A stretch of DNA of 64,000 bases, taken from the NCBI GenBank assembly GCA_030390025.1, contig CM059431.1:147376001-147440000 (forward strand), in the 5' to 3' direction. Below the pieces are notes generated by a model. It was not told the DNA's origin and did no database searches. It was given only the letters and a program-made list of their open reading frames with translations. Made by a program: the position numbers and the translations under genes. The DNA comes from Squalus acanthias. Lineage: Eukaryota. The first letter of the stretch is position 1. The number at the start of each line of letters is the position of its first letter. Of this stretch, positions 9,995 to 59,165 are shown piece after piece.

Positions 9995-10046
9995 CTAACA
10001 TCTGGTGTCGACCAGGCTTCTGCTTAATTTACAGGGAAACTTCACC

Positions 10047-32200: not shown

Positions 32201-35200
32201 GGAAGAGGTGACAGAGATAGGGAGGGTTATAGGGGCTGGAGGAGGTTACAGCGATAGGGAGGGTTGTAGGGCCTGGAGGAGGATACAGAAATAGGGAGGG
32301 TTGTAGGGGCTGGAGAGGTTACAGAGATAGGGAGGGTTGTAGGGGCTGGAGGAGGTTACAGAGATAGGGAGGGTTGTAGGGCTGGAGGATATTACAGAGA
32401 TAGGGAGAGATGTAGGGGCTGGAGGAGGTTACAGAGATAGGGAGGATTGTAGGGGCTGGAAGAGGTGACAGAGATAGGGAGGGTTGTAGGGCTGGAGGAG
32501 GTTACAGCGATAGGGAGGGTTGTAGGGGCTGGAGGAGGATACAGAAATAGGGAGGGTTGTAGGGGCTGGTTGAGTTTACAGAGATAGGGAGGGTTGTAGG
32601 GGCTGAAGGAGGTTACAGCGATAGGGAGGGTTGTAGGGGCTGGAGGATATTACAGAGATAGGGAGGGTTGTAGGTGCTGGAGGAGGTTGCAGAGATAAGA
32701 AGGTTTGTAGGGGCTGGAAGAGGTGACAGAGATAGGGAGGGTTGTAGGGCTGGAGGATATTACAGAGATAGGGAGGGTTGTAGGGGCTGGAAGTGGTTAC
32801 AGAGATAGGGAGGGTTGTAGGGACTGGAGGAGGTTACAGAGATAGGGAGGATTGTAGGGGCTGGAAGAGGTGACAGAGATAGGGAGGGTTGTAGGGGCTG
32901 GAGAAGGTTACAGCGAAAGGGAGGGTTGTAGGGGCCGGAGGGGGATACAGAAATAGGGAGGATTGTAGGGGCTGGAGGAGGTTACAGAGATAGGGAGGGT
33001 TGTAGGGGCTGGAGTGTGTTACAGAGAGAGGGTGGGTTGTAGGGGCTGGAGGAGGTTACAGAGATAGGGAGGGTTGTAGGGGATAGAGGAGGTTACAGAT
33101 ATAGGGAGGGTTGTATGGCTGGAGGAGGTTACAGAGATAGGGAGGGTTGTAGGGGATAGAGGAGGTTCCAGATATAGGGAGGGTTGTAGGGCTGGAGGAG
33201 GTTACAGATATAGGGAGGTTTGTAGGGCTGAAGGAGGTTACAGATATAGGAAGAGTTGTAGGGGCTGGAGAAGGTTACAGAGATAGGGAGGTTTATGGGG
33301 CTGGATGAGGTTACAGAGATATGCAGGTTTGTAAGGCTGAAGGAGGTTTCAGATATAAGGAGAGTTGTAGGGGCAGGAGAAGGTTACAGAGATAGGGAGG
33401 GATGTAGGGCTGGAGGAGGTTACAGAGATGGGGAGGATTGTAGGGGCTGGAGGAGGTTACAGAGATCGGGAGGGTTGTAGGGCTGGATGAGGTTACAGGG
33501 ACAGGGAGGGTTGTAGGGACTGGAGGAGGTTACAGAGATAGGGAGGGTTGTCGGGCTGGAGGAGGTTACAAAGATGGGGAGGATTATAGGGGCTGGAGGA
33601 TGTTACAGCGACAGGGAGGGGTGTAGATGCTGGAGGAGGTTACAGAGATAGGGAGGATTGTAGGGGCTGGAGGAGGTTACATAGATAGGGAGGGTTGTAG
33701 GGCTGGAGGAGGTTACAGCGATAGGGAGGATTGTCGGGGCTGGAGGAGGATACAGAAATAGGGAGGATTGTCGGGGCTGGTTGAGTTTACAGAGATAGGG
33801 AGGGTTGTAGGGGCTGAAGGAGGTTACAGCGATAGGGAGGGTTGTAGGGGCTGGAGGATATTACAGAGATAGGGAGGGTTGTAGGGGCTGGAGGAGGTTA
33901 CAGCGATAGGGAGGGTTGTAGGGGCTGGAGGATATTACAGAGATAGGGAGGGTTGTAGGGGCTGGAGGAGGTTACAGCGATAGGGAGGGTTGTAGGGGCT
34001 GGAAGAGGTGACAGAGATAGGGAGGGTTGTAGGGCTGGAGGATATTACAGAGATAGGGAGGGTTGTAGGGGCTGGAAGAGGTTACAGAGATAGGGAGGGT
34101 TGTAGGGACTGGAGGAGGCTACAGAGGTAGGGAGGATTGTAGGGGCTGGAAGAGGTGACAGTCATAGGGAGGGTTGTAGGGGCTGGAGGAGGTTACAGCG
34201 ATAGGGAGGGTTGTAGGGGCTGGAGGAGGATACAGAAATAGGGAGGGTTGTAGGGGCTGGAGGAGGTTACAGAGATAGGGAGGGTTGTAGGGGCTGGAGG
34301 AGGTTACAGAGATAGCGAGGGTTGTAGGGCTGGAGGATATTACAGAGATAGGGAGAGTTTTAGGGGCTGGAGGAGGTTACAGAGATAGGGAGGGTTGTAG
34401 GGACTGGAGGAGGCTACAGAGATAGGGAGGATTGTAGGGGCTGGAAGAGGTGACAGTCATAGGGAGGGTTGTAGGGGCTGGAGGAGGTTACAGCGATAGG
34501 GAGGGTTGTAGGGGCTGGAGCAGGATACAGAAATAGGGAGGGTTGTAGGGGCTGGAGGAGGTTACAGAGATAGGGAGGGTTGTAGGGGCTGGAGGAGGTT
34601 ACAGAGATAGGGAGGGTTGTAGGGCTGGAGGATATTACAGAGATAGGGAGAGTTGTAGGGGCTGGAGGAGGTTACAGAGATAGGGCGGGTTGTAGGGACT
34701 GGCGGAGGTTACAGAGATAGGGAGGATTGTAGGGGTGGAAGAGGTGACAGAGATAGGGAGTGTTGTAGGGCTGGAGGAGGTTACAGCGATAGGGAGGGTT
34801 GTAGGGGCTGGAGGAGGATACAGAAATAGGGAGGATTGTACGGGCTGGTTGAGTTTACAGAGATAGGGAGGGTTGTAGGGGCTGAAGGAGGTTACAGCGA
34901 TAGGGAGGGTTGTAGGGGCTGGAGGAGTTTGCAGAGATAAGGAGGTTTGTAGGGGCTGGAAGAGGTGACAGAGATAGGGAGGGTTGTAGGGCTGGAGGAT
35001 ATTACAGAGATAGGGAGGGTTGTAGGGGCTGGAAGAGGTTACAGAGATAGGGAGGGTTGTAGGGACTGGAGGAGGTTACAGAGATAGGGAGGATTGTAGG
35101 AGCTGGAAGAGGTGACAGAGATAGGGAGGGTTGTAGGGGCTGGAGGAGGTTACAGCGATAGGGAGGATTGTAGGGGCTGGAGGAGGTTACAGAGATAGGG

Positions 35201-38200
35201 AGGGTTGTAGGGGCTGGAGGAGGTTACAGCGATAGGGAGGGTTGTAGGGGCTGGAGGAGGATACAGAAATAGGGAGGATTGTAGGGGCTGGAGGAGGTTA
35301 CAGAGAAAGGGAGGGTTGTAGGGGTTGGAGGAGGTTACAGAGATAGGGAGGGTTGTAGGGGCTGGAGGAGGTTACAGAGATAGGGAGGGTTGTAGGGGCT
35401 GGAGGAGGTTACAGAGATAGGGAGGGTTGTAGGGGCTGGAGCAGGTTACACAGATACGGAGGGTTGTAGGGGCTGGAGGATATTACAGAGATAGGGAGGG
35501 TTAAATGGCTGGAAGAGGTTACAGAGAGAGGGAGGGTTGTTGGGACTGCAGGATATTACAGGATAGGGAGGGTTGTAGGGCTGGAGGAGGTTTCAAAGAT
35601 AGGGAGGGTTGTAGGGGATAGAGGAGGTTCCAGATATAGGGAAGGTTGTAGGGCTGGAGGAGCTTACAGATATAGGGAGGTTTGTAGGGCTGAAGGAGGT
35701 TACAGAGATAGGAAGATTTGTAGGGGCTGGAGAAGGTTACAGAGATAGGGAGGTTTATGGGGCTGGATGAGGTTACAGAGATATGCAGGTTGTAAGGCTG
35801 AAGGAGGTTTCAGATATAAGGAGAGTTGTCGGGGCAGGAGAAGGTTACAGAGATAGGGAGGGATGTAGGGCTGGAGGAGGTAACAGAGATGGGGAGGATT
35901 GTAGGGGCTGGAGGAGGTTACAGAGATAGGGAGGATTGTCGGGTCTGGAGGAGGTTACAGAGATCGGGAGGGTTGTAGGGGCTGGAGGAGGTTACAGAGA
36001 TAGGGAGGGTTGAAGGGGCTGGAGGAGGTTACAGAGATAGGGAGTGTTGTAGGGGCTGGAGGAGGTTACAGAGATAGGGAGGGTTGTAGGGGCTGGAGGA
36101 TGTTACAGAGATAGGGAGGGTTGTAGGGGCTGGATGAGGTTACAGAGATAGGGTTGTAGGGCTGGAGGAGGTTACAGAGATAGGGAGTGTTGTAGGGCTG
36201 GAGGAGGTTACAGCGATAGGGAGGGTTGTAGGGGCTGGAGGAGGATACAGAAATAGGGAGGATTGTACGGGCTGGTTGAGTTTACAGAGATAGGGAGGGT
36301 TGTAGGGGCTGAAGGAGGTTACAGCGATAGGGAGGGTTGTAGGGGCTGGAGGAGTTTGCAGAGATAAGGAGGTTTGTAGGGGCTGGAAGAGGTGACAGAG
36401 ATAGGGAGGGTTGTAGGGCTGGAGGATATTACAGAGATAGGGAGGGTTGTAGGGGCTGGAAGAGGTTACAGAGATAGGGAGGGTTGTAGGGACTGGAGGA
36501 GGTTACAGAGATAGGGAGGATTGTAGGAGCTGGAAGAGGTGACAGAGATAGGGAGGGTTGTAGGGGCTGGAGGAGGTTACAGCGATAGGGAGGATTGTAG
36601 GGGCTGGAGGAGGTTACAGAGATAGGGAGGGTTGTAGGGGCTGGAGGAGGTTACAGCGATAGGGAGGGTTGTAGGGGCTGGAGGAGGTTACAGAGATAGG
36701 GAGGGTTGTAGGGGCTGGAGGAGGTTACAGAGATAGGGAGGGTTGTAGGGGCTGGAGCAGGTTACACAGATAGGGAGGGTTGTAGGGGCTGGAGGATATT
36801 ACAGAGATAGGGAGGGTTAAATGGCTGGAAGAGGTTACAGAGAGAGGGAGGGTTGTTGGGACTGCAGGATATTACAGGATAGGGAGGGTTGTAGGGCTGG
36901 AGGAGGTTTCAAAGATAGGGAGGGTTGTAGGGGATAGAGGAGGTTCCAGATATAGGGAAGGTTGTAGGGCTGGAGGAGGTTACAGATATAGGGAGGTTTG
37001 TAGGGCTGAAGGAGGTTACAGAGATAGGAAGATTTGTAGGGGCTGGAGAAGGTTACAGAGATAGGGAGGTTTATGGGGCTGGATGAGGTTACAGAGATAT
37101 GCAGGTTGTAAGGCTGAAGGAGGTTTCAGATATAAGGAGAGTTGTCGGGGCAGGAGAAGGTTACAGAGATAGGGAGGGATGTAGGGCTGGAGGAGGTAAC
37201 AGAGATGGGGAGGATTGTAGGGGCTGGAGGAGGTTACAGAGATAGGGAGGATTGTCGGGTCTGGAGGAGGTTACAGAGATCGGGAGGGTTGTAGGGGCTG
37301 GAGGAGGTTACAGAGATAGGGAGGGTTGAAGGGGCTGGAGGAGGTTACAGAGATAGGGAGTGTTGTAGGGGCTGGAGGAGGTTACAGAGATAGGGAGGGT
37401 TGTAGGGGCTGGAGGATGTTACAGAGATAGGGAGGGTTGTAGGGGCTGGATGAGGTTACAGAGATAGGGTTGTAGGGCTGGAGGAGGTTACAGAGATAGG
37501 GAGTGTTGTAGGGCTGGAGGAGGTTACAGCGATAGGGAGGGTTGTAGGGGCTGGAGGAGATTACAGAGATAGGGAGGGTTGGAGGGGCTGGAGGCGGTTA
37601 CAGAGATTGTCAGGGTTGGAGGGGCTGGAGGAGGTTACAGAGATAAGGAGGGTTGTAGGGGCTGGAGAGGTTACAGAGATAGGGAGGGTTGTAGGGGCTG
37701 GAGGAGGTTACAGAGATAGGAGGTTTGTAGGGGCTGGAGGAGGTTACAGAGATAGGGAGGGTTGTAGGGCTGGAGGAGGTTACAGAGATAGGGAGGGTTG
37801 TAGGGCTGGAGGAGGTTACAGAGATAGGGAGGGTTGTAGGGCTGGAGGAGGTTACAGAGATAGGGAGGGTTGTAGGAGCTGGAGGAGGTTACAGAGATAG
37901 GGAGGGTTGTAGGGGCTGGAGGAGGTTACAGAGATAGGGAGGGTTGTAGGGGCTGGAGGAGGTTACAGAGATAGGGAGGGTTGTAGGGGCTGGAGGAGGT
38001 TACAGCGATAGGGAGGGTTGTAGGGGCTGGAGGAGGATACAGAGAATAGGGAGGGTTGTAGGGGCTGGAGGAGGTTACAGAGATAGGGAGGGTTGTAGGG
38101 GCTGGAGGAGGTTACAGAGAAAGGGAGGGTTGTAGGGCTGGAGGAGATTACAGAGATAGGGAGGGTTGTAGGGGTGGAGGAGGTTACAGAGATAGGGAAG

Positions 38201-38858
38201 GTTGTGGGCTGGAGGAGGTTACAGAGATAGGGAAGATTGTGGGGCTGGAGGAGGTTACAGAGATAGGGAGGGTTGTAGGCGTTGGAGGAGGTTACAGAGA
38301 TAGGGAAGGTTGTGGGGCTGGAGGAGGTTACAGAGATAGGGAGGGTTGTAGGACTGGAGGTGGTTCCAGAGATAGGGAGGGTTGTAGGACTGAAGAAGAT
38401 TACAGAGATAGGGAGGGTTGTAGGGGCTGGAGGAGGTTACAGAGATAGGGAGGGTTGTAGAGCTGGAGGAGGTTACTGAGATAGGGAGGGTTGTAGGGGC
38501 TGGAGGAGGTTACAGAGATAGGGAGGTTTGTAGGGGCTGGAGGAGGTTACTGAGATAGGAAGGGTTGTAGGGGCTGGAGGAGGTTACAGAGATAGGGAGG
38601 GTTGTAGGCGTTGGAGGAGGTTACAGAGATAGGGAGGGTTGTAGGGGCTGGAGGAGGTTACAGAGATAGGGAGGGTTGTAGGGGTTGGAGGAGGTTACAG
38701 AGATAGGGAGGGTTGTAGGGGTTGGAGGAGGTTACAGAGATAGGGAGGGTTGTAGGGGTTGGAGGAGGTTACAGAGATAGGGAGGGTTGTAGGGGCTGGA
38801 GGAGGTTACAGAGATAGGGAGGGTTGTAGTGGTTGGAGGAGGTTACAGAGATAGGGAG
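23265..38858. repeat. ~15.6 kb G-rich 37-bp satellite (GTTACAGAGATAGGGAGGGTTGTAGGGGCTGGAGGAG), roughly 420 units, with higher-order structure
   Basis: Direct periodicity. The diagnostic variant TGCTACACAGATAGGGAGGGGTGTAGATG recurs at 23951, 26529, 29107 and 31065. Confidence 0.95.
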
Positions 38859-40269: not shown

Positions 40270-40317
40270 TCACTCATTCTCCAATAGCCACAGGTGCTCC
40301 ACGGTCACATGTACAAC
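40270..40317 (-). CDS. Putative terminal coding exon of hidden gene (VVHVTVEHLWLLENE*)
   Basis: Branch-like GCTGAC plus ctcttcctttccaag acceptor. Phase 0 matches the donor at 51047. Candidate ATTAAA on minus at 39157-39162. Confidence 0.5.
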   Translation of the reverse strand, partial: VVHVTVEHLWLLENE

Positions 40318-40418
40318 CTTGGAAAGGAAGAGCGTACAGTCAGCGCAAAAACGGTTCAAGTCACCTCGACCCCCACCGGCCAATCAGTCAACCTCACTAG
40401 TAGGAGCACGATAATTGG

Positions 40419-43400
40419 TCAGTGTAGAGGGAGCTTTACTCTGTATCTAACCCGTGCTGTACCTGCCCTGGAAGTGTTTGATGGGACAGTGCAGAGTGAG
40501 CTTTACTCTGTATCTAACCAGTGCTGTACCTGCCCTGGAAGTGTTTGATGGGACAGTGTAGAGGGAGCTTTACTCTGTATCTAACCCCTGCTGTACCTGC
40601 CCTGTGAGTGTTTGATGTGACAGTGTAGAGGGAGCTTTACTCTGTATCTAACCCGTGCTGTACCTGCCCTGGGAGTGTTTGATAGGACAGTGTAGAGGGA
40701 GCTTTACTCTGTATCTAACCCGTGCTGTACCTTCCCTGGAAGAGTTTGATGGGACAGTGCAGAGGGAGCTTTACTCTGTATCTAACCCATGCTGTACCTG
40801 CCCTGGGAGTGTTTGATGGGACAGTGTAGAGGAAGCTTTACTCTGCATCTAGCCCATGCCGTACCTACCCTGGGAGTGTTTGACGGAAGAGTGTAGAGGT
40901 AGCTTTATTCTATATCGAAATCGTGCTGTACCACCCCAGGGAGTGTTTGATTGGAATGTGTGAAAGGAGCTTTACACTGTATCTAACCCGTGCTGTACCT
41001 GCCCTGGGAGTGGTTGACGGGACAATGTAGAGGGAGCTTTACTCTGTGTCTAACCCCGTGCTGTACCTGCCCTGGGCGTGTTTGAAGGGACAGTGTAGAG
41101 GGAGCTTTACTCTGTATCTAACCCGTGCTGTACCTGCCCTGGGCGTGTTTGAAGGGACAGTTTAGAGGGAGCTTTACTCTGTATCTAACCCGTTCTGTAC
41201 CTGCCCTGGGAGTGTTTGCTGTGTCAGTGTAGAGGCAGCTTTACTCTGTATCTAACCTGTGCTGTCCCTGCCCTAGGAGTATTTGATGCGACAGTGTAGA
41301 GGGAGCTTTACTCTGTATCTAATCTGTGCTGTACCTGCCCTGGGAGTGTTTGATGCGACAGTGTAGAGGGAGCTTTACTCTGTATCTAACCCGTGCTGTA
41401 CCTGCCCGTGGAGTGTTTGATGGGACAGTGCAGAGGGAGCTTTACTCTGTATCTAACCCGTGCTGTACCTGCCCTGGGAGTGTTTGATAGGACAGTGTAG
41501 AGGGAGCTTTACTCTGTATCTAACCCGTGCTGTACCTGCCCTGGGAGTATTTGATGCGACAGTGTAGACGGAGCTTTACTCTGTATCTAACCCATGCTGT
41601 ACCTGCCCTGGGAGTGTTTGATGGGGCAGTGTAGAAGGAGCTTTACTCTGTATCTAACCTGTTCTGTACCTGCCCTGGGAGTGTTTGATGGGACAGTACA
41701 GAGGCAGCTGTACTCTGTATCCAACCCATACTGTATCTGCCCTGGGAGTGTATGATGGGGCTGTGTAGAGGGAGCTTTACTCTGTATCTAACCCGTGCTG
41801 TACCTGCCCTGGGAGTGTTTGCTGGGACAGTGTAGAGGGAGCTTTACTCTGTATCTAACCCGTGCTGTACCTGCCCTGGGAGTGTCTGATAGGACAGTGT
41901 AGAGGGAGCTTTACTTTGTATCTAACCCGTGCTGTACCTGCCCTGGAAGTGTTTGATGGGACAGTGCAGAGTGAGCTTTACTCTGCATCTAACCAGTGCT
42001 GTACCTGCCCTGGAAGTGTTTGATGGGACAATGTAGAGGAAGCTTTACTCTTTATCTAACCCATGCTGTACCTTCCCTGGAAGAGTTTGATGGGACAGTG
42101 TACAGGGAGCTTTACTCTGTATCTAACCCATGCTGTACCTGCCCTGGGAGTGTTTGATGGGACAGTGCAGAGGAAGCTTTACTCTGCATCGAGCCTATGC
42201 CGTACTTACCCTGGGAGTGTTTGACGGGAGAGTGTAGAGGTAGCTTTATTCTATATCTAAATCGTGCTGTACCAGCCCAGGGAGTGTTTGATTGGAATGT
42301 GTGAACGGAGCTTTACACTGTATCTAACCCGTGCTGTACCTGCCCTGGGAGTGGTTGATGGGACAGTGTAGAGGGAGCTGTACTCTGTGTCTAACCCCGT
42401 GCTGTACCTGCCCTGGGCGTTTTTGAAGGGACAGTGTAGAGGGAGCTTTATTCTGTATCTAACCCGTTCTGTTCCTTCCCTGGGAGTGTTTAATGGGACA
42501 GTGCAGAGGGAGCTTTACTCTGTATCTATCCCGCGCTGTACCTGCCTTGGGAGTGTTTGATGGGACAGTGTAGAGGGAGCTTTACTCTGTATCTAACCCG
42601 TGCTGTACCTACCCTGGGAGTGTTTTATGGGACAGTGTAGAAGGAGCTTTACTCTGTATCTAACCTTTGCTGTACCTGCTATGGGAGTGTTTGATGGGAC
42701 AGTACAGAGGCAGCTTTACTCTGTATCCAACCCATACTGTATCTGCCCTGGGAGTGTTTGATGAGGCTGTGTAGAGGGAGCTTTACTCTGTATCTAACCC
42801 GTGCTGTACCTGCCCTGGGAGTGTTTGCTGGGACAGTGTAGAGGGAGCTTTACTCTGTATCTAACCCGTGCTGTACCTGCCCTGGGAGTGTTTGATAGGA
42901 CAGTGTAGAGGGACCTTTACTCTGTATCCAACCCGTGCTGTACCTGCCCTGGAAGTGTTTGATGGGACAGTGCAGAGTGAGCTTTACTCTGTATCGAACC
43001 AGTGCTGTACCTGCCCTGGAAGTGTATCATGGGACAGTGTAGAGGGAGCTTTACTCTGTATCTAACCCGTGCTGTACCTACCCTGGGAGTGTTTTATGGG
43101 TCAGTGTAGAGGGAGCTTTACTCTGTATCTAACCCGTGCTGTACCTGCCCTGGGAGTGTTTGATGGGACAGTGTAGAGGGAGCTTTACTCTGTATCTAAC
43201 CCGTGCCGTATCTGCCCTGGAAGTGTTTGATGGGACAGTGTAGAGGAAGCTTTACTCTGCATCTAGTCCATGCTGTACTTGCCCTGGGAGTGTTTGACGG
43301 GACAGTGTAGAGGGAGATTTACTCTGTATCCAACTCAGTGCTGTACCTGCCCTGGGAGTGTTTGATGGGATAGTTTAGAGGGAACTTTACTCTGTATCTA

Positions 43401-46400
43401 ACCCGTGCTGTACCTGCCCTGGAAATGTTTGATGAGACAGTGCAGAGGGAGCTTTACTCATATATAACCTGTGCTGTACCTGCCCTGGGAGTGTTTGATG
43501 GGACAGTGTTGATGGAGCTTTACTCTGTATCTAACCCATGCTGTACCTGCCCTGGAAGTGTTTGCTGTGTCAGTATAGAGGCAGCTTGACTCTGTATCTA
43601 ACCCGTGCTGTACCTACCCTGGGAGTATTTGATGCGACAGTGTAGAGGGAGCTTTACTCTGTATCTAACCTGTGCTGTACCTGCCCTGGGAGTATTTGAT
43701 GCGACAGTGTAGACGGAGCTTTACTCTGTATCTAACCCATGCTGTACCTGCCCTGGGAGTGTTTGATGGGACAGTGTAGAGGGAGCTTTACTCTGTATCT
43801 AACGCGTGCTGTACCTGGCCTGGAAGTGTTTGATGTGACAGTGCAGAGGGAGCTTTACTCTGTATCTAACCCGTTCTGTACCTGCCCTGAGAGTGTTTGA
43901 TGGGACAGTGTAGAGGGAGCTTTACTCTGTATCTAACCCGAGCCGTACCTGCCCTGGGAGTGTTTGATGAGACAGCGTAGAGGGAACTTTACACTGAATC
44001 TAATCTGGGCCGTACCTGCCCTGGGCTTGTTTGAAGGAACAGTGTAGAGGGAACTTTACTCTGTATCTAACCCGTGCCGTACCTGCCCTGGGAGTGTTTG
44101 AAGGGACAGAGTAGATGGAGCTTTACTCTGTATCTAAACCGTGCTGTACCTTCGATGGAAGTGTTTGATGGGACAGTGCAGAGGGAGCTTTACTGTGCAT
44201 CTAACCCATGCTGTACCTGCCCTGGAAATGTTTGATGAGACAGTGTAGATGGAGCTTTACTCTGTTTCTAACCCGTGCTGTACCTGCCCTGGAAGTGTTT
44301 GATGGGGACAGTGTAGAGGGAGTTTTACTCTATATCTAACCCGTGCTGTACCTGCCCTGGGAGTATTTGATGCGACAGTGTCGACGGAGCTTTACTCTGT
44401 ATCTAACCCATGCTGTACCTGCCCTGGGAGTGTTTGATGGGACAGTGTAGAAGGAGCTTTACTCTGTATCTAACCTTTGCTGTACCTGCTATGGGAGTGT
44501 TTGATGGGACAGTACAGAGGCAGCTTTACTCTGTATCCAACCCATACTGTATCTGCCCTGGGAGTGTTTGATGAGGCTGTGTAGAGGGAGCTTTACTCTG
44601 TATCTAACCCGTGCTGTACCTGCCCTGGGAGTGTTTGCTGGGACAGTGTAGAGGGAGCTTTACTCTGTATCTAACCCGTGCTGTACCTGCCCTGGGAGTG
44701 TTTGATAGGACAGTGTAGAGGGACCTTTACTCTGTATCCAACCCGTGCTGTACCTGCCTGGAAGTGTTTGATGGGACAGTGCAGAGTGAGCTTTACTCTG
44801 TATCGAACCAGTGCTGTACCTGCCCTGGAAGTGTATCATGGGACAGTGTAGAGGGAGCTTTACTCTGTATCTAACCCCTGCTGTACCTGCCCTGTGAGTG
44901 TTTGATGTGACAGTGTAGAGGGAGCTTTACTCTGTATCTAACCCGTGCTGTACCTGCCCTGGGAGGGTTTGATAGGACAGTGTAGAGGGAGCTTTACTCT
45001 GTATCTAACCCGTGCTGTACCTGCCCTGGAAGTGTTTGATGGGACAGTGCAGAGTGAGCTTTACTCTGTATCTAACCAGTGCTGTACCTGCCCTGGAAGT
45101 GTTTGATGGGACAGTGTAGAGGAAGCTTTACTCTGTATTTAACCCATGCTGTACCTGCCCTGGGAGTGTTTGATGGGACAGTGTAGAGGAAGCTTTACTC
45201 TGCATCTAGCCCATGCCGTACTTACCCTGGGAATGTTTGACGGGAGAGTGTTGAGGTAGCTTTATTCTATATCTAAATCGTGCTGAACCAGCCCAGTGTT
45301 TGATTGGAATGTGTGAACGGAGCTTTACACTGTATCTAACCCGTGCTGTACCTGCCCTGGGAGTGGTTGACGGGACAGTGTAGAGGTAGCTTTACTCTGT
45401 GTCTAACCCCGTGCTGTACCTGCCCTGTGCGTGTTTGAAGGGACAGTGTAGTGGGAGCTTTGCTCTGTATCTAACCCGTTCTGTACCTGCCCTGGGAGTG
45501 TTTAATGGGACAGTGTAGAGGGAGCTTTACTCTGTATCTAACCCGTGCTGTACCTGCCCTGGGAGTGTTTGATGGGACAGTGTAGAAGGAGCTTTACTAT
45601 GTATCTAACCTTTGCTGTACCTGCTATGGGAGTGTTTGATGGGACAGTACAGAGGCAGCTTTACTCTGTATCCAACCCATACTGTATCTGCCCTGGGAGT
45701 GTTTGATGAGGCTGTGTCGAGGGAGCTTTACTCTGTATCTAACCCGTGCTGTACCTGCCCTGGGAGTGTTTGCTGGGACAGTGTAGAGGGAGCTTTACTC
45801 TGTATCTAACCCGTGCTGTACCTGCCCTGGGAGTGTTTGATAGGACAGTGTAGAGGGACCTTTACTCTGTATCCAACCCGTGCTGTACCTGCCCTGGAAG
45901 TGTTTGATGGGACAGTGCAGAGTGAGCTTTACTCTGTATCGAACCAGTGCTGTACCTGCCCTGGAAGTGTATCATGGGACAGTGTAGAGGGAGCTTTACT
46001 CTGTATCTAACCCCTGCTGTACCTGCCCTGTGAGTGTTTGATGTGACAGTGTAGAGGGAGCTTTACTCTGTATCTAACCCGTGCTGTACCTGCCCTGGGA
46101 GTGTTTGATAGGACAGTGTAGAGGGAGCTTTACTCTGTATCTAACCCGTGCTGTACCTGCCCTGGAAGTGTTTGATGGGACAGTGCAGAGTGAGCTTTAC
46201 TCTGTATCTAACCAGTGCTGTACCTGCCCTGGAAGTGTTTGATGGGACAGTGTAGAGGAAGCTTTACTCTGAATCTAACCCATGCTGTACCTTCCCTGGA
46301 AGAGTTTGATGGGACAGTCTAGAGGGAGCTTTACTCTGTATTTAACCCATGCTGTACCTGCCCTGGGAGTGTTTGATGGGACAGTGTAGAGGAAGCTTTA

Positions 46401-49400
46401 CTCTGCATCTAGCCCATGCCGTACTTACCCTAGGAATGTTTGACGGGAGAGTGTTGCGGTAGCTTTATTCTATATCTAAATCGTGCTGAACCAGCCCAGG
46501 GAGTGTTTGATTGGAATGTGTGAACGGAGCTTTACACTGTATCTAACCCGTGCTGTACCTGCCCTGGGAGTGGTTGACGGGACAGTGTAGAGGTAGCTTT
46601 ACTCTGTGTCTAACCCCGTGCTGTACCTGCCCTGGAAGTGTTTGAAGGGACAGTGTAGTGGGAGCTTTGCTCTGTATCTAACCCGTTCTGTACCTGCCCT
46701 GGGAGTGTTTGATGGGACAGTGTAGAGGGAGCTTTACTCTGTGTCTAACCCGTGCCGTACCTGCCCTGGAAGTGTTTGATGGGACAGTGTAGAGGAAGCT
46801 TTACTCTGCATCTAGCCCATGATGTACTTGCCCTGGGAGTGTTTGACGGGAGAGTGTGGAAGGAGCTTTACTCTGTATCTTTCCCGCGCTGTACCTGCCT
46901 TGGGAGTGTTTGATGGGACAGTGTAGAGGGAGCTTTACTCTGTATCTAACCCGTGCTGTACCTACCCTGGGAGTGTTTGATGGGACAGTGTAGAAGGAGC
47001 TTTACTCTGTATCTCACCTGTGCTGTACCTTCCCTGGAAGAGTTTGATTGGACACTGTAGAGGGAGCTTTACTCTGTATCTAACACATGCTGTACCTGCC
47101 CTGGGAGTGTTTGATGGGACAGTGTAGAGGAAGCTTTACTCTGCATCTCGCCCATGCTGTACTTGCCCTGGGAGTGTTTGACGGGAGAGTGAGCGGTAGC
47201 TTTATTCTATATCTAAATTGTGCTGTACCTGCCCTGGGAGAGTTTGATGGGACAGTGCAGAGGGAGCATAACTCGGTATCTAACCCATGCTGTCCCTGAC
47301 CTGGGAGTGTTTGATGGGGCAGTGTAAAGGGAGCTTTACTCTGTATGTAACCCGTGCTGTAACTGCCCCGGGAGTTTTTGATGGGGCTGTGTCGAGGGAG
47401 CTTTACTCTGTATCTAACCCGTGCTGTACCTGCCCTGGAAGTGTTTGAAGGGACAGTGTAGAGGGAGCTTTACTCTGTATCTAACCCGTGCTGTACCTGC
47501 CCTGGGAGTGTTTGATGGGACAGTGCAGATGGAGCTTTACTCTGTATCTAACCGGTGTTGTACCTGCCCTGGGAGTGTTTGATGGGACAGTGCAGATATA
47601 GCTTTACTCTGTATCTAACCCGTGCTGTTCCTGCCCTGGAAGTGTTTGATGGGACAGTGTCGAGGGAGCTTTACTCTCTATCTAACCAGTGCTGTGCCTG
47701 CCCTGGGAGTGTTTGATGGGACAGTGTAGAGGGAGCTTTACTCTGTATCTAACCCGTGCTGTACCTGCCGTGGAAGTGTTTGATGAAACAGTGTGGATGG
47801 AGATTAACTCTGTAAGTAACCCGTGCTGTACCTGCCCTGGGAGTGTTTAATGGGACAGTGTAGAGGGAGCTTTACTCTGTATCTAACCCGTGCTGTACCT
47901 GCCCTGGGAGTGTTTGATGGGACAGTGTAGAGGGAGCTTTACTCTGTGTCTAACCCGTGCCGTACCTGCCCTGGAAGTGTTTGATGGGACAGTGTAGAGG
48001 AAGCTTTACTCTGCATCTAGCCCATGATGTACTTGCCCTGGGAGTGTTTGACGGGAGAGTGTGGAAGGAGCTTTACTCTGTATCTTTCCCGCGCTGTACC
48101 TGCCTTGGGAGTGTTTGATGGGACAGTGTAGAGGGAGCTTTACTCTGTATCTAACCCGTGCTGTACCTACCCTGGGAGTGTTTGATGGGACAGTGTAGAT
48201 GGAGCTTTACTCTGTATCTCACCTGTGCTGTACCTTCCCTGGAAGAGTTTGATTGGACACTGTAGAGGGAGCTTTACTCTGTATCTAACACATGCTGTAC
48301 CTGCCCTGGGAGTGTTTGATGGGACAGTGTAGAGGAAGCTTTACTCTGCATCTCGCCCATGCTGTACTTGCCCTGGGAGTGTTTGACGGGAGAGTGAGCG
48401 GTAGCTTTATTCTATATCTAAATTGTGCTGTACCTGCCCTGGGAGAGTTTGATGGGACAGTGCAGAGGGAGCATAACTCGGTATCTAACCCATGCTGTCC
48501 CTGACCTGGGAGTGTTTGATGGGGCAGTGTAAAGGGAGCTTTACTCTGTATGTAACCCGTGCTGTAACTGCCCCGGGAGTTTTTGATGGGGCTGTGTCGA
48601 GGGAGCTTTACTCTGTATCTAACCCGTGCTGTACCTGCCCTGGAAGTGTTTGAAGGGACAGTGTAGAGGGAGCTTTACTCTGTATCTAACCCGTGCTGTA
48701 CCTGCCCTGGGAGTGTTTGATGGGACAGTGCAGATGGAGCTTTACTCTGTATCTAACCGGTGTTGTACCTGCCCTGGGAGTGTTTGATGGGACAGTGCAG
48801 ATATAGCTTTACTCTGTATCTAACCCGTGCTGTTCCTGCCCTGGAAGTGTTTGATGGGACAGTGTCGAGGGAGCTTTACTCTCTATCTAACCAGTGCTGT
48901 GCCTGCCCTGGGAGTGTTTGATGGGACAGTGTAGAGGGAGCTTTACTCTGTATCTAACCCGTGCTGTACCTGCCGTGGAAGTGTTTGATGAGACAGTGTG
49001 GATGGAGATTAACTCTGTAAGTAACCCGTGCTGTACCTGCCCTGGGAGTGTTTAATGGGACAGTGTAGAGGGAGCTTTACTCTGTATCTAACCCGTGCTG
49101 TACCTGCCCTGGGAGTGTTTGATGGGACAGTGTAGAGGGAGCTTTACTCTGTGTCTAACCCGTGCCGTACCTGCCCTGGAAGTGTTTGATGGGACAGTGT
49201 AGAGGAAGCTTTACTCTGCATCTAGCCCATGATGTACTTGCCCTGGGAGTGTTTGACGGGAGAGTGTGGAAGGAGCTTTACTCTGTATCTTTCCCGCGCT
49301 GTACCTGCCTTGGGAGTGTTTGATGGGACAGTGTAGAGGGAGCTTTACTCTGTATCTAACCCGTGCTGTACCTACCCTGGGAGTGTTTGATGGGACAGTG

Positions 49401-50793
49401 TAGATGGAGCTTTACTCTGTATCTCACCTGTGCTGTACCTTCCCTGGAAGAGTTTGATTGGACACTGTAGAGGGAGCTTTACTCTGTATCTAACACATGC
49501 TGTACCTGCCCTGGGAGTGTTTGATGGGACAGTGTAGAGGAAGCTTTACTCTGCATCTAGCCCATGCTGTACTTGCCCTGGGAGTGTTTGACGGGAGAGT
49601 GTAGCGGTAGCTTTATTCTATATCTAAATTGTGCTGTACCTGCCCTGGGAGAGTTTGATGGGACAGTGCAGAGGGAGCATAACTCGGTATCTAACCCATG
49701 CTGTCCCTGACCTGGGAGTGTTTGATGGGGCAGTGTAAAGGGAGCTTTACTCTGTATGTAACCCGTGCTGTAACTGCCCCGGGAGTTTTTGATGGGGCTG
49801 TGTCGAGGGAGCTTTACTCTGTATCTAACCCGTGCTGTACCTGCCCTGGAAGTGTTTGAAGGGACAGTGTAGAGGGAGCTTTACTCTGTATCTAACCCGT
49901 ACTGTACCTGCCCTGGGAGTGTTTGATGGGACAGTGCAGATGGAGCTTTACTCTGTATCTAACCAGTGTTGTACCTGCCCTGGGAGTGTTTGATGGGACA
50001 GTGCAGATATAGCTTTACTCTGTATCTAACCCGTGCTGTACCTGCCCTGGAAGTGTTTGATGGGACAGTGTCGAGGGAGCTTTACTCTGTATCTAACCAG
50101 TGCTGTGCCTGCCCTGGGAGTGTTTGATGGGACAGTGTAGAGGGAGCTTTACTCTGTATCTAACCCGTGCTGTACCTGCCGTGGAAGTGTTTGATGAGAC
50201 AGTGTGGATGGAGATTAACTCTGTAAGTAACCCGTGCTGTACCTGCCCTGGGAGTGTTTGATGGTACAGTGGAGAGGGAGCTTTACTCTGTATCTAACCC
50301 GTGCTGTAGTTGCCCTGGGCGTGTTTTATGGGACAGTTTAGAGGGAGCTTTACTCTGTATCTAACCCGTGCTGTAGTTGCCCTGGGCGTGTTTTATGGGA
50401 CAGTTTAGAGGGAGCTTTACTCTGTATCTAACACGTGCTGTACCTGCCCTGGGAGTGTTTGATGGGGCAGTGTAGAGGGAGCTTTACTCTGTATCTCACC
50501 TGTGCTGTACCTGCCCTGGGAGTGTTTGATGGGACAGTGTGGAGGGAGCTTTACTCTGTATCTAAGCTGTGCTGTACCTGCCCTGTGAGTGTTTGATGGG
50601 ACAGTGTAGAGGGAGCTTTACTCTGTATCTAACCCGTGCTGTACCTGCCCTGGGAGTGTTTGATGGGACAATTTATTAGCAGCTTTACACTGTATCTCAG
50701 CTGTGCTGTACCTGCCCTGGGAGTGTTTGATGGGACAGTGTGGAGGGAGCTTTACCCTGTATCTAAGCTGTGCTGTACCTGCCCTGGGAGTGT
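40419..50793. repeat. ~10.4 kb 67-bp satellite (GTGTTTGATGGGACAGTGTAGAGGGAGCTTTACTCTGTATCTAACCCGTGCTGTACCTGCCCTGGGA), ~155 units
   Basis: Period 67 (40474 to 40541). Identical variant blocks at 47087 and 48292 are 1205 bp apart, i.e. 18 units. Confidence 0.95.
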
Positions 50794-51047
50794 TTGATGG
50801 GGCAGCGACGCCCCCCACAGTAACCCAGCGCCAGGGTCCGTGCGAGCATGGGACCAGGTGAGGACGGGAATGGAATTCTGCCGCGATGCACGCCACATGC
50901 GAATATCCCTCCGAAACTGACAGCCTGGGGCTCGGGGCGGGAGGAGGGCGAGGTGAGATACCAGGGGCATATAATCCCAGGATTCCTCTCCCTCCAGGAC
51001 TCCCTCCCCCTCCCCCAGAACGGGTAACACTCCCGTACGATCCTTAC

Positions 51048-51179
51048 CCTGCTGTGCTGTGGGTCCGGATAATCACGCAGCTGTCCGGGGAAGGCCTGGC
51101 GCACAGCCTGTTTCAGCTCCCGCGGGTAGACGTAGGTCGGCCACGGGCAGTGCTGGAGTCCGAGCCCAGCTTTCCACTG
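51048..51179 (-). CDS. Putative internal exon of hidden gene ((Q)WKAGLGLQHCPWPTYVYPRELKQAVRQAFPGQLRDYPDPQHSR)
   Basis: Polypyrimidine tract plus NAGNAG acceptor (GAG/CAG), donor AGG|GTAAGG, open in phase 0, GC3-rich codons. Confidence 0.65.
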
Positions 51180-52001
51180 CTCGGGAGAGAGAGAGGGGGA
51201 GTTAACGTTGATCTGCGGATCGAGGGTTGGTGACTGAAGACCGTTAGTGTCGCACTGAGTCGGGGGGAAGGTTTGGGGTCAGGGAAGGTTTCAGAGGTCG
51301 GGGGTAATGTTTGGGGGTTTAAGAAATGTTTGGAGGTCAGGGGAAGGTATAGGGTCAAGGGAAAGGTTTAGGGGTCAGGGGTCGGGCAAAGTTTTGGGGG
51401 TCAGGGGTCGGGGAAAGGTTTTGGGGTCGGCAAGAAAGGTTTGCGGGTCGGGGGAAATTTCGGGGAAAGATTTAGGGGTCGGGGAAAGATTTGGGGGTCA
51501 AGGCTCATGGAAGGATTTAGGGTCAGGGGTCGGGGAAAGATTTGGTGGTCAGGACTCGGGGAACGGTTTTGTGGTCAGGTGTCGGAACAGTTTTGGGGTT
51601 AGGAGTCAGGTATGGGGGTCAGGGGTCAGGGAACGGCTTGGGGGCTGGGAGTCAGGTTTGGGGGTCAGTGGTCAGGGAACGGCTTGGGGGCTGGGAGTCA
51701 GGTTTGGGGGTCAGGGGTCAGGGAACGGTTTGGGGGTCGGGGAACAGTTTGGGGGTCGGGGAACAGTTTGGGGGTTGGGGAACAGTTTGGGGGTCGGGGA
51801 ACAGTTTGGGGGTTGGGGAACAGTTTGGGGGTTGGGGAACAGTTTGGGGGTTGGGGAACGGTTTGGGGGTTGGGGAACGGTTTGGAGGTTGGAGAACAGT
51901 TTGGGGGTTCGTGTTCGGGGGAATGGTTTGGGGGTCGGTCGGGATAAGGGGGGTCGGGCTATGGGAGGGGCTGTCGGTGAATCCCCGGCGAGTTGCCCTA
52001 C

Positions 52002-52101
52002 CAGTCTCCGTCCAATCAGTCGATACGCCTCGTGTCTCCGGCTCCGGTTCCGTCTCTTGCGGGTGGCGGTCTCCAGGATGCGGGCGATCCAGAGCGGGAG
52101 G
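52002..52101 (-). CDS. Putative internal exon of hidden gene (LPLWIARILETATRKRRNRSRRHEAYRLIGRRL)
   Basis: Acceptor cttcctcctcttcccgtag, donor CTG|GTAGGG; 100 nt, phase 2 to phase 0, consistent with both neighbouring exons. Confidence 0.65.
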
Positions 52102-52139
52102 CTACGGGAAGAGGAGGAAGACGGGCTCGCGTTATACAA

Positions 52140-53400
52140 GGGAGGGGATAGAGAGATAGAAAGAGAGAGATAGAGAGATAGAAGGAGAGAGGGATAGAGA
52201 GAGCAATAGAATGGGAGAGAGACAGAACGGGAGAGAGGGATAGAGAGAGAGGAATAGAGAGAGAGATAGAACGGGAGAGAGAGATAGAGAGATAGAAAGT
52301 GAGGAGACAGAAAGGGATAGAGAGACAGAGAAAGGGATAGAGAGAGATAGAATTCGATAGAAAGAGAGATATTAAGGGAAAGGGAAAGAAAGAGAGAGCC
52401 AGGGATAGAAAGAGATATAGAGACAGAGGGATAGAAAGGGAGAGATAAAAAGTGAGAGATAGAAACAGAGAGATCGAAAGAGAGCTAGAAAAGGAAAGTG
52501 ATAGAGAGGGATAGAGAGAGAGATAGAAAGACGCAGACAAAGACAGAGGGCGGGATACAGAGAGAAAGCGAGAGAGATTAAAAGGAGAGAGATAGAGAGG
52601 AATAGAGAGAGAGTGGATAAAGAGAGAGAGATAGAAAGGGAGGGAGCGGGAAATCTATCCACACCTCACCCCTGCTCTGTCTCTCTCCCTACATCCCCTG
52701 CACTCTTCCCTAACTCTCACCCACTCTCTCTCCTCTTCACTCCCCCTCACTCTCTCCCTCCCTCTCCCCTTTTCCTGACCCCTCTTTCTCCCTCTCCCCT
52801 TTTCCTCTCCCTATCTCTCCCCTCTCTATCACTCCCCCTCTCTATCACTCCCCTTCTCTCTCCCTCTCTCGTTCCCTCTCTCCGCCTCTCTTTCTCCCCC
52901 TCTCTCTCTCTCTCCCCCTCTCGTTCTCTCTCCCTTTTTCTCTACCCCACTCTCATTCCCTTTCTCGCCCCCTCTCCCTCCCCTCTCTCGTTCTCTTTCT
53001 CCCCACTCGCTCTATCCCCCTCTCTCCCACTCTCTCTCTTTCTCTACCCCTCTCATTCCTTCTCTCTCCCCTCCCCCTTCCCACTCTCTCCCTCCCTCTC
53101 TCGTTTCCTCTCTCCCCACTCTCTCACTCTAATCCCCCCTCTCCCCCTCTCCTGTTCTCTCTCTCCCTCTCTTGTTCTCTCTCTCTACCTGTCTCTCTTC
53201 ACTCTCTCTCTCCACCTCTCCTTCTCTCTCCCTATCACCCTCTCCTTCTCTCTCCCTCTCTTTTTCCCTCTCTCTCCACCTCTCCCGCTCCCCACTATCT
53301 CCCCTCTCTCTCCTTCCCCTCTCTCGTTCTCTCGCTCCCCTCTCTCGTTCTCTCTATCCTCCTCTCATTCTCCCTCACTCTCTCGTTCCCTCTCTCACCC
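52140..53400. repeat. GA-rich tract (52140-52650) followed by CT-rich tract (52675-53400); a G-rich GGGGAACAGTTT-type repeat lies at 51250-51950
   Basis: Direct inspection; low complexity. Confidence 0.88.
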
Positions 53401-53589
53401 CCATTCCCCACACTCCTCTCTGGAAACCTCCATAATCGCCTGTCCAGCCCCACCCCCATTGATGACATCACCCCACCATGGCCCCGCCCACCTGCTCCTC
53501 TTAAAGGCACAGTTCACTCCCCCCAGATGGAGGCTGCAGTTTGGTTCGTTGACGAGTTGCTCCAGCCTCCCGACACTGTCATTACTTCT

Positions 53590-55768
53590 TGTAAGACGCC
53601 TCGCCCCGTCCAACATTGTCCAAAGTTCAGACCCCCTCGAACAGACAACACAAAAAACCAATGAATCTGCGAAAACTTCTTTCACTTAAAAATCAGCACG
53701 AGATTGCAAGCAAGTATCCGACAGTTATGTTGCGTATAACAATTCCTGATTGTACTTTAGCATACACAGAGCTATCCCTTTACCTTAAGCTAAAGCGACA
53801 GTTCTTCTCTTCTCTGTTCTTAGGCAGTCCCTCGGAACCGATGCGGGACCTACAGTCTTTGTCACAGGTTGGGCAGACGGTGGTTGAAGGGGCGGGTGGG
53901 TGGGGTGCTTGGGTTGACGTGCGCTCCTTGCGCTGCCTGCGCTTGACTTCCGCTTGCTCCCGGCGAAGAGACTCGAGGTGTTCGGCGCCTTCCCGGATGC
54001 TTCTCCTCCACTTTGTGCAGTCTTGGGCCGGGGATTCCCAGGTGTCGGTGGGGATGTTACACTTTTTCAAGGAGGCTTTGAGGGTGTCCTTGAAGCGTTT
54101 CCTCTGCCCACCTGGGACTCTCTTGCCGTGTCGGAGCTCCGAGTAGAGCGCTTGTTTTGGGAGTCTCGTATCGGGCATGCGGACGATGTGACCCGTCCAT
54201 CGGAGCTGATTGAGCGTGGTCAAAGCTTCGATGCTGGGGATGTTGGCCTGAGCAAGAACACTGATGTTGGTGCGCCTATCCTGCCAATGGATTTGCAGGA
54301 TCTTGCGGAGGCAGCGTTGGTGGTAACTCTCCAGTGCTTTGAGGTGCCTGCTGTACATGGTCCATGTCTCTGAGGCATACAGCAGGGCGGGTATCACTGC
54401 TGCTCTGTAGACATGAGCTTAGTGCCGGGTTTGAGGTCCTGGTTTTCAAACACTCTCTTCCTCAGGCGACCGAAGGCTGCACTGGCACACTGAAGGCGGT
54501 GTTGGACTTCATCGTCGACGTCTGCCCTTGTTAACAGTAGGCTCCTGAGGTATGGAAAGTGGTTCACGTTGTCCAAGGCCTTGTCGTGGATTTTGATAAT
54601 CGGGGGGCAGTACTGTGTGGCGGGGGCAGGTTGGTAGAGGACCTTTGTCTTACGGATGTTTAGTGTAAGGCTCATGCTCTCATACGCTTCGGTGAAGGTG
54701 TTGACGATGGTTTGGAGTTTGACCTCCGAGTGAGCGCAGACGCAAGCGTTGTCTGCATACTGTAATTCGACGACAGAGGATGGGACGACCGTGGATCTGG
54801 ACCGGAGCCGACGGAGGTTGAACAGTTTCCCGTTTGTTCTGTAAATTAGCTCCACTCCAGCGGGGAGCTTACTGAGGGTGAGATGGAGCATTGCAGCAAG
54901 GAAGATCCAGAAGAGCGTTGGTGCGATAACACAGCCTTGCTTGACCCTGGTTCGTACGTGAATTGGGTCTGTGGTGGAACCGTTGGTCGGGATCACGGCT
55001 TGCATGTTGTCGTGAAGCTGGCGGAGGATGGTGACAAACTTTTGAGGGCAGCCGAATTTGCGGAGGACACTCCATAATCCCTCAGGGTTGACAGTGTCGA
55101 AGGCCTTTGTGAGATCAAAGAAGGTCATGTACAGCGGTTGGTGCTGTTCCCTGCATTTCTTTTGTAATTGACGCGCGGTGAAGATCATGTCCATTGTGCC
55201 CCTTAGTGGGCGGAATCGCATTGCGACTCTGGGAGGAGCTCTTCAGCCACTGGGAGAAGGCGATTGAGGAGGATTCTTGTGATGACCTTCCCTGTGGCAG
55301 ACAGCAGGGAAACTCCTCTGTAATTACCGCAATCGGACTTGTCACCTTTCTTGAAGATGGTCACAATTACGGCGTCTCTGAGATCCCCTGGCATGCTCTC
55401 CTCCTTCCAGATAAGAGAAATTAGTTCATGAATTCGCGCCAGTAGTGCTTCTCCGCCATGCTTTAGTGCCTCGGTGGGGATTCCATCTGCTCCTGAGGCC
55501 TTGTTGTTCTTCAGTTGTAATAAGCAAAACACTACATACGTACTAACACTGGGGATTGGTCAATTCGGCAATGACTAGATGTATGATTTCAGACAAATGC
55601 CAAGGCTGCAGCCTCGAGTGTCTTTTTACAGCACCTTCTATACCTTAAAACCTGGCAAACCTCCCACTGCGTACGTGTCCCAAACTTATACAAAGAATAG
55701 TCAGAAGTTGTTTTTCTCTTCTTATCAGTGGTCAGTCAGTCAGTCAATGGGCCGCAAGGCCTGTTACA
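53590..55768 (-). mobile_element. Solo-LTR-like element (~460 bp net) interrupted by an RTE LINE
   Basis: Termini TGTAA...TTACA; flanks TTCT/TTCC (4-bp TSD, 1 mismatch); internal homology to 4467-4680 on both sides of the RTE. Confidence 0.55.
53801..55517 (-). mobile_element. 5'-truncated RTE-clade LINE (RT domain, frameshifted), same family as 7533-8633
   Basis: KASGADGIP…KKGDKSDCGNYRGVSLLS…FFDLTKAFDTV…KQGCVIAP.LF…LQYADN; the C-terminal region is nearly identical to the copy in pol. Confidence 0.93.
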
Positions 55769-55780
55769 TTCCAAAGTCTG

Positions 55781-58266
55781 ATTAACGATTTGGAGGAGGG
55801 GACCAAGTGCAACGTATCCAAGTTTGCAGACGATACAAAGATGGGAGGGAAAGCAGTGAGTGAGGAGGACATAAAAAACCTGCAAAAGGACAGAGGCAGG
55901 CTAAGTGAGTGGGCAGAAATTTGGCAGATGGAATATAATGTTGGAAAGTGTGAGGTTATGCACTTTGGCAGAAAAAATCAAAGAGCAAGTTATTATCTAA
56001 ATGGAAAGAGACTGCAAAGTGCTACAGTACAAAGGGATCTGGGGGTCATAAGAGCATAAGAAATAGGAGCAGGAGTAGGCCAATCGGCCCCTCGAGCCTG
56101 CTCCGCCATTCAATAAGATCATGGCTGATCTGATCCTAACCTCAAATCTAAAGAACACAAGAAGTAGGAGCAGGACCCAGCCACTCAGCCCCTGGGCCCG
56201 CTCCGCCACCCACAGGGCCTTGACCGATCCGAACTCAGCCTCATGTCCAATTTCCTGCCCGCTCCCCGTAACCCCTAATTCCCTTTACCTCTAGGAAACT
56301 GTCTATTTCTGTTTTAAATTTATTTAATGATGTAGCTTCCACAGCTTCCTGGGGCAGCAAATTACACAGACCTACTACCCTCTGAGTGAAGAAGTTTCTC
56401 CTCATCTCAGTTTTGAAAGAGCAGCCCCTTATTCTAAGATTATGCCCCCTAGTTCTAGTTTCATCCATGCTTGGGAACATCCTTATCGCATCCACCCGAT
56501 CAAGCCCCTTCACAATCTTATATGTTTCAATAAGATCGCCTCTCATTCTTCTGAACTCCAATGAGTAGAGTCCCAATCTACTCAACCTCTCCTCATATGT
56601 CCACCCCCTCATCCCCGGGATTAACCGAGTGAACCTTCTTTGTACTGCCTCGAGAGCAAGTATGTCTTTTCTTAAGTATGGACACCAAAACTGTATGCAG
56701 TATTCCAGGTGCGGTCTCACCGATACCTTATATAACTGCAGCAATACCTCCCTGTTTTTATAATCTATCCCACTAGCAATAAAAGCCAACATTCCGTTGG
56801 CCTTCTTGATCACCTGCTGCACCTGCATACTAACTTTTTGATTTTCTTGCACTAGGACCCCCAGATCCCTTTGTACTGCAGTACTTTCCAGTTTCTCGCC
56901 ATTAAGATAATAACTTGCTCTCTGATTTTTCCTGCCAAAGTGCATAACCTCACATTTTCCAATTTTGTATTGCATCTGCCAAATCTCCACCCACTCACCC
57001 AGCCTGTCTATATCCCCTTGTAGGTTTTTTATGTCCTCCTCACTTTCTACTTTCCCTCCCATCTTTGTATCATCTGCAAACTTTGATATGTTACACTCGG
57101 TCCCCTCCTCCAAATCGTTAATATAGATTGTAAAGAGTTGGGGACCCAGCACCGACCCCTGCGGAACACCACTGGCTACTGGTTGCCAGTCCGAGAATGA
57201 ACCACTTATCCCAACTCTCTGCTTCCTGTTAGATAACCAATCCTCCACCCATGCCAGAATATTACCCCCAATCCAGTGATTTTTTATCTTGAGCAATAAT
57301 CTTTTATGTGGCACCTTGTCGAATGCCTTCTGGAAGTCTAAATACATTACGTCCACTGGTTCCCCTTTATCCACCCTGTACGTTATGTCCTCAAAGAACT
57401 CGAGCAAATTTGTCAGACATGACTTCCCCTTCATAAAGCCATGCTGACTTTGTCCTATTAAATTATGTTTATCTAAATGTTCCGTTACTGTCTCCTTAAT
57501 AATAGACTCCAAAATTTTACCCACCACAGATGTTAGGCTAACTGGTCTATAATTTCCTGGTGCATGAAACACAGCAGGTTAGCATGCAGGTACAGCAGGT
57601 GATCAGGAAGGCCAATGGAATCTTGGCTTTTATTGCAAGGGGGATGGAGTATAAAAGCAGGGAAGTCTTGCTTCAGCTATACAGGGTACTGGTTAGGCCA
57701 CACCTGGAGTACTGCGTACAGTTTTGGTTTCCATATTTAAGAAAAGATATACTTGCTCTAGAGGCAGTTCAGAGAAGGTTCACTCGGTTGATTCCGGAGA
57801 TGAGGGGGTTGACTTATGAGGAAAGGTTGAGTAGGTTGGGCCTCTACTCATTGGAATTCAGAAGAATGAGAGGCGATCTTATCGAAACATAGAAGATTGT
57901 GAGGGGGCTTGATCAGGTGGATGCGGGGAGGATGTTTCCACTGATGGGTGAGACTAGAACTAGGGGGCATAATCTTAGAATAAGGGGCTGCCGTTTCAAA
58001 ACTGAGATGAGGAGAAACTTCTTCACTCAGAGGGTAGTAAATCTGTGGAATTTGCTACCTCAGAGAGCTGTGGAAGCTGCGACATTAAATAAATTTAAAA
58101 CGGAGATAGACAGTTTCCGAGCTGATAAGGGAATTAAGGGTTATGGGGAGCGGGCAGGGAAGTGGACGTGAGTCTAGGTTCGGATCAGCCATGATCCTAT
58201 TGAATGGCGGAGCAGGCCCGAGGGGCCGTATGGCCTACTCCTGCTCCTACTTCTTATGTTCTTATG
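55781..58266 (+). mobile_element. 5'-truncated CR1 LINE, split by a nested antisense CR1
   Basis: SKFADDTK…QRDLGV (to 56047) resumes LVHETQQVSMQ…RPHLEYC…(from ~57558) and ends in the (TTCTTATG)n tail. Confidence 0.92.
56048..57557 (-). mobile_element. CR1 LINE (open ~440-codon RT/C-terminal ORF) nested in the opposite orientation
   Basis: PGNYRPVSLTS…YLDFQKAFDKVPH…SGVPQGSVLGP…FADDTK…; its own 3' tail at 56048-56240 carries two tandem copies of the terminal motif. Confidence 0.95.
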
Positions 58267-58959
58267 ATATTCCTGTTCAATAGCTTCTTCTCCACAGAAC
58301 TCTCAAGATCTGTTTCCCTTATCTGTTAAAATGCAGCCGGCAGACCATACATCTTGCAACCATAGCAGTCTGTTCCACATTTCAGCGGAAAGTCTCTGTT
58401 TCTGTGCACGTTCTTCTTTATCTGTGAACAGTTTTCGCACAAACTTCCCACAGGAACCAACCTCTCGGCCTCGAACAAACAACCTCAATTTTTTTTGTAA
58501 TCCAATTTAAAAAAAGTACTTTCAATAAGTCCAGATACATTTTCTACCAGACACGATCAGAAACCATGGCAACCATAACTTCAAGGCTGAAGCTTATCTT
58601 TTGTAAAACAAACTGCCTCTGATTTACAGTTAGCTGTACAATCCGTCCCAGTCAAAGTATATCCACAGCGGTGTATTTAACTTAAAAAATGCAAATCACA
58701 AAGTTTCTCCCACTTCTAGGTGCACGATCTTAAATTGAAATGAGCGTATTTAACACATCCACACTCTCTTAAAACCACCAACATCCAAGACAAGACTACA
58801 AAGGGTTAAATGGCCTTTAGCTCTATGCACAGAGAAGCAGGTGGAGCTAAAACAAACACAACAGACACTTTCTTTCAAAGGTGGACTTTCAGACAAAAGG
58901 AATATTGTAACTTTTTAAAATTCATAGTCAGGAAAACTTCCACACTTTAACACACAGAG

Positions 58960-59165
58960 AGGGAGGGGTTAACAGTCTGAGGGGAGGAGTTAACAGTTGG
59001 GGGAGGGGTTAACATGTGGAGGGGGAAGGGGTTAACAGTGGGAGGGGAAGGGTTAACAGTGGGAGGGGAGGGGTTAACAGTGGGAGGGGAGGGGTTAACA
59101 GTGGGAGGGGCGGGGTTAACAGTGGGAGGGTCAAGGGTAACTGAGGGGTGGGGTTAACAGTGGGC
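58960..59165. repeat. 21-bp G-rich minisatellite (GGGAGGGGAGGGGTTAACAGT)
   Basis: Period 21 at 59053 and 59074; lies in the presumed FAM111 3' region. Confidence 0.85.

Follow-up and report, generated by a model that had tools for sequence, protein, structure and literature searches.

A conserved four-exon gene of an unnamed animal protein family in the shark Squalus acanthias, and its possible distant relationship to the P2X7 ballast

The window analyzed here is a 64,000-nt stretch of the 3.7-Gb genome of Squalus acanthias (G000:C7:147376001-147440000), composed mostly of tandem arrays and transposon debris. Two ecto-ADP-ribosyltransferase (ART) genes (PF01129) are located on its plus strand at 1354-2232 and 18650-20199; one is open and encodes a C-terminal membrane segment, and one is broken. 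A broken retrovirus-like element, with pol/integrase-like pieces recognized by eye, occupies approximately 6500-12000 of the same strand, and an env-like open frame of 661 aa (10028-12013, plus strand) gave no significant Pfam match. Very long tandem arrays of a 37-mer (424 copies) and a 67-mer (155 copies) extend over 23266-38858 and 40420-50805, respectively. The minus strand carries a copy of a FAM111-like trypsin-fold gene (61059-59284) with an in-frame TGA at 59952-59950, a neighbour of the gene described below and separate from it. Several FAM111-like paralogues with open frames of 585-603 aa were observed on unplaced contigs.

On the minus strand there is almost certainly a real, conserved protein gene, an intact locus of four exons encoding a 103-residue member of an unnamed animal family. 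Coding exon 1 (53433-53399, 35 nt) comprises the ATG, 11 codons plus 2 nt and a phase-2 donor (GG/GTGAGA). Exon 2 (52101-52002, 100 nt) encodes a PxW helix and a long basic helix with R34, Y38 and R39, exon 3 (51176-51048, 129 nt) the motifs G-x-G, PTYVYP, K67, R71, FP and DYPDP, and exon 4 (40317-40270, 48 nt including TGA) a V-x-x-x-T-x-E-D-L strand and a helix. The frame of the coding sequence (35+100+129+48 = 312 nt, 103 aa) is unbroken, and the introns of 1297, 825 and 10,730 nt are all of the GT-AG type, with six intact splice sites. Nearly all of intron 3 (51047-40318) consists of the 67-bp tandem array (155 copies). The segment 53588-53434, conserved in paralogues, is the likely proximal promoter and 5′ UTR; it contains a TATA-like TTTAAGAG at 53505 (72 nt upstream of the ATG) and, at 53489, a GC box. 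The product (12 kDa, pI 9.9) has no hydrophobic stretch.

An earlier note on this DNA had proposed four exons with GT/AG ends and phases 2, 0 and 0. These ends and phases held for 52101-52002, 51179/51176-51048 and 40317-40270, whose translation (exons 2-4) reads as claimed, but not for the long first exon, 58488-53492. Splicing evidence was sought by comparing runs X1, X2, X3 and X5 with positions 51000-52140; X2 comes from a related organism (B) in one study, and its RNA type is a guess. In one X2 contig, 52002 is followed directly by 51176 across an intron with GT..AG ends, the shorter side of the joint measuring 30 letters; acceptor 51176 is thus used, and the optional glutamine that the NAGNAG alternative at 51179 would add is excluded. 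Loose ends of X2 (51046, 52000) continue into the initial bases of exon 4, which shows both the exon 3-4 junction, entered from 51048 as had been anticipated, and an exon-3-skipping form. That isoform (52002 to 40317) stays in frame, but its product would be deprived of the best-conserved portion of the protein. Another X2 contig crosses the exon-2 acceptor unspliced, and no 52002/51176 joint was found in X1, X3 or X5 over 51000-52140.

A phmmer search of 1.84 billion representative proteins with exon 3 as the query returned 19 matches at E ≤ 1e-3, of which 18, sharing 38-54% identity with the shark protein, were kept as relatives; P0117 was discarded as a chance match. A source was named for seven of ten clusters (two frogs, a turtle, Phoxinus/Siphateles, Aldrovandia, Albula and Liparis) and for one of nine further clusters (the coral Porites), so that teleosts, frogs, a turtle and a coral are among the named relatives. 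No bird or mammal occurs among the named matches, 11 clusters carrying no source name. The uncharacterised proteins XP_077092169 (Siphateles), KAJ8405212 (Aldrovandia), XP_077148481 (Ranitomeya) and KAM4020079 (Anomaloglossus) (both from frogs), CAM2103446 (Caretta) and CAH3196293 (Porites) share the conserved blocks and 44-53% identity with the shark protein over aligned columns; all six are known solely as database models, and the ends of several are incorrect. G51, P58-T59-Y60 and K67 are invariant in the relatives covering these sites. In one frog model the block encoded by exon 3 is duplicated precisely, and in another model an insertion falls on the exon 2/3 border, which suggests that the exon borders are likely to be conserved across the family.

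The relatives are labelled uncharacterised, hypothetical or unnamed, with the exception of the Liparis model (P0115, TNN61167), which is named CHCHD7 and whose C-terminal part belongs to the small-gene family; it is probably a fused gene model, hinting at a fish gene beside chchd7. No Pfam family was found over the family region in the 19 phmmer matches or in six further members, and, as had been stated earlier, no named gene can be assigned, the relatives carrying neither a function nor a Pfam family. A literature search by family motif and accessions, covering the main texts of mostly freely accessible papers, found no paper on the family.

Likeness of the peptide to the cytoplasmic ballast of P2X7 (PF20478), proposed in the earlier note, was borne out in part. 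In the hhalign register, the equivalent of R546 is R34 (7/7 relatives) and that of R578 is R71 (18/19). Y550 corresponds to Y38 (7/7), I/V568 to V/I61 (19/19), P570 to P63 (18/19), F/Y581 to F74 (13/19), P582 to P75 (16/19) and Y588 to Y81 (16/19). The spacing of the equivalents of R546, Y550, I568, P570, R574, R578, F581-P582 and Y588 is shared with the ballast. Two contacts differ: at H547 there is His in the shark only and R or K in the seven others, and the K583 position is variable, with K in one of 19 proteins. According to PMC7016195, K583 has been lost in nanor too. PF20478 did not score above its curated cut-off in single exons, in the 19 phmmer matches or in the six further members, including full-length P0125, and a genome scan for it gave no match in the small-gene cluster. 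The earlier observation that the zinc-binding PSCC cysteines are absent was confirmed, since at least 18 of 19 relatives have variable non-cysteine residues at those positions.

It is quite possible, if somewhat doubtful, that this conserved gene encodes an independent small fold, whose succession of a basic helix and a P...R..FP helix resembles the ballast by chance. Against this, the sequence register and the structural alignment converge on one P2X7 region, near-invariant basic residues coincide with three of the five GDP contacts (of which R546 and R578 are retained by every ZCD protein), and the predicted order of the helices agrees with that of the ballast, ZCD proteins and nanor (PF20478; PTHR36981). 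The structure is predicted to be a compact body of four helices held together by a clamp of two short strands. The reading that we prefer, that the small protein is a remote ballast relative, falls just short of an even chance.

Two further candidate families were considered. A zf-CW domain, suggested by Atlas features for P0125 (0.91, recognition 1769, weak), was rejected; the family does not conserve the cysteines, and Pfam zf-CW has no match in P0125. For MADF/Myb-SANT, hhalign gave a probability of 0.2% against 30 MADF-like repeats of the genome, a low-diversity set, and Pfam MADF matched none of the single exons, phmmer matches or six further members. At least 150 scored MADF-like matches on many contigs resemble one dispersed repeat family.

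Genome-wide matches were obtained for exon 2 (n = 17), exon 3 (n = 16), exon 4 (n = 17) and coding exon 1 (n = 10), at C7:147.30-147.58 Mb and on unplaced contigs. The copy number is about 17, and the unplaced contigs may include second haplotypes. Exon 1 is present in nine of the 17 copies examined, and in eight of the 17 exons 1-3 are open and have GT donors. Of the eight copies lacking exon 1, six carry a stop or a destroyed donor (p = 0.015; the copies are not independent), and pN/pS between paralogues is 0.61 (p = 0.09). The copies arose through segmental duplication, and the duplicated block often includes an ART gene as well; many of the 37 ART matches in the genome lie within duplicated blocks of the small gene.

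The earlier note also placed the gene directly downstream of FAM111 on the same strand, which is correct for the window copy but not elsewhere. The 3′ flank of the FAM111 duplication unit (53589-58960), a dispersed repeat broken by LINE fragments and containing LINE-like ORFs, is common to all four fetched FAM111 paralogues and ends at approximately 53589-53599, beyond which they diverge, and paralogues of the small gene share sequence with the window only from 53588 onward. At about 53589 the flank abuts the promoter of the small gene. Two duplication units thus meet in the window copy, whose position beside FAM111 is atypical and results from a rearrangement observed in this copy alone.

Whether the window copy is active is an independent question. 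That it is a silent or impaired duplicate of a real family, which the rearrangement would have severed from its upstream region, is conceivable but rather doubtful. Just 155 nt of its original 5′ sequence remain before the junction, position 96 is His where six of six relatives have Asp, the adjoining FAM111 copy carries a stop, and nine of the 17 copies are broken or lack exon 1. However, the ORF, ATG and six splice sites of the window copy are all unbroken, and it retains the TATA-like and GC boxes.

The long first exon of the earlier model, broken by transposons and spliced at 53492, is highly improbable. Its donor is in phase (score 8.1 with a rough matrix) and one of nine paralogues (L016) has an in-frame ATG, but 58488-53492 is mostly high-copy repeat plus promoter (the dispersed repeat at 58960-58265 has 2225 candidates in the genome, and that at 53800-53599 has 985), and its frame is stopped approximately 36 codons before the donor in eight of the nine paralogues carrying 53588-53492. 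Moreover, it is unlike the relatives' N-termini, which 53433-53399 resembles. This exon, found by scanning for ATG-to-phase-2-donor exons once relatives were known, is present in eight of 16 fetched paralogue loci as well as in the window; 12 codons align without gaps with the N-termini of three teleost relatives, all of which keep Cys8, Pro14 and Trp16. Judged from these alignments, the true first coding exon is 53433-53399, within an intron of the earlier model.

Equally improbable is an ART-ballast fusion in which exons 2-4 are 3′ exons of an upstream ART gene: in several copies such a gene lies 6-9 kb upstream on the same strand, and a phase-2 GT precedes the ART transmembrane segment, but the small gene has its own ATG exon matching fish N-termini, neither the peptide nor PF20478 occurs in any of 72 ART homologues (160-511 aa), and the closest shark ARTs terminate in an identical membrane segment.

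The gene is thus real, overlooked and widely conserved, and the first exon of its model has been corrected. Taken as a whole, the explanation that we favour, an intact gene for an intracellular phosphate-ligand binder with a zinc-free, ballast-like pocket, has about an even chance. The small basic protein, presumably soluble given its pI and the absence of a hydrophobic stretch, would act inside the cell as a stand-alone module; its origin may lie in the C-terminal half of the ballast/KolX fold. R34, K67 and R71 of the predicted pocket might contact a phosphate-bearing ligand, either guanine nucleotide or nucleic acid. Binding of guanine nucleotide specifically is rather unlikely. We consider just as unlikely the fuller proposal of a zinc-free stand-alone ballast module, ranging from corals to turtles, that kept the phosphate-binding residues, replaced the zinc scaffold with a PTYVYP/DYPDP clamp, serves as a guanine-nucleotide sensor and was co-expanded in the shark with ART genes.

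Whether or not it is related to the ballast, a 12-kDa protein with approximately 45-50% identity among shark, bony fish, frogs and turtle, and with a coral relative, for which we found no name, Pfam model or paper, represents a tractable unknown. If the relationship is real, nucleotide binding would have been separated from zinc binding within the ballast fold, the fold would be used by a host gene family besides nanor and P2X7, and the protein would offer a small soluble model for the role of the P2X7 GDP pocket, which is still an open question.

Among known systems, the family may be remotely related to the nucleotide-binding tail of P2X7, from which it would differ in lacking zinc. Like nanor, it consists of small stand-alone proteins, and like ballast, ZCD and nanor proteins it ranges from cnidarians to vertebrates. 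In ZCD proteins zinc is bound by seven or eight cysteines, which form three clusters (PxWCxCxxC, LCC and PSCC), whereas the shark protein has two cysteines. In PMC7016195 the ZCD is defined by its cysteines and typical ZCD proteins are reported in cartilaginous fish; no cysteine-free family appears in the parts consulted. A canonical nanor/ZCD gene (PF20478, E = 4e-35) was observed in the shark genome at G000:C1:169189797-169190198 (L047), and proteins from other cartilaginous fish share 80-92% identity with its product. PMC9587614 links KolX to the ballast and describes cysteine-poor KolX-like proteins in a few piggyBac families, a precedent for ballast-like proteins without most of the cysteines; at the place of RRKAY in the small-gene family, one of the listed piggyBac proteins shows RKxAY (compared by eye). 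In contrast to KolX of Kolobok elements, which accompanies a transposase and terminal repeats, the small gene belongs to the host, contains introns and has relatives throughout the vertebrates, and no transposase was noticed among the ORFs of the window.
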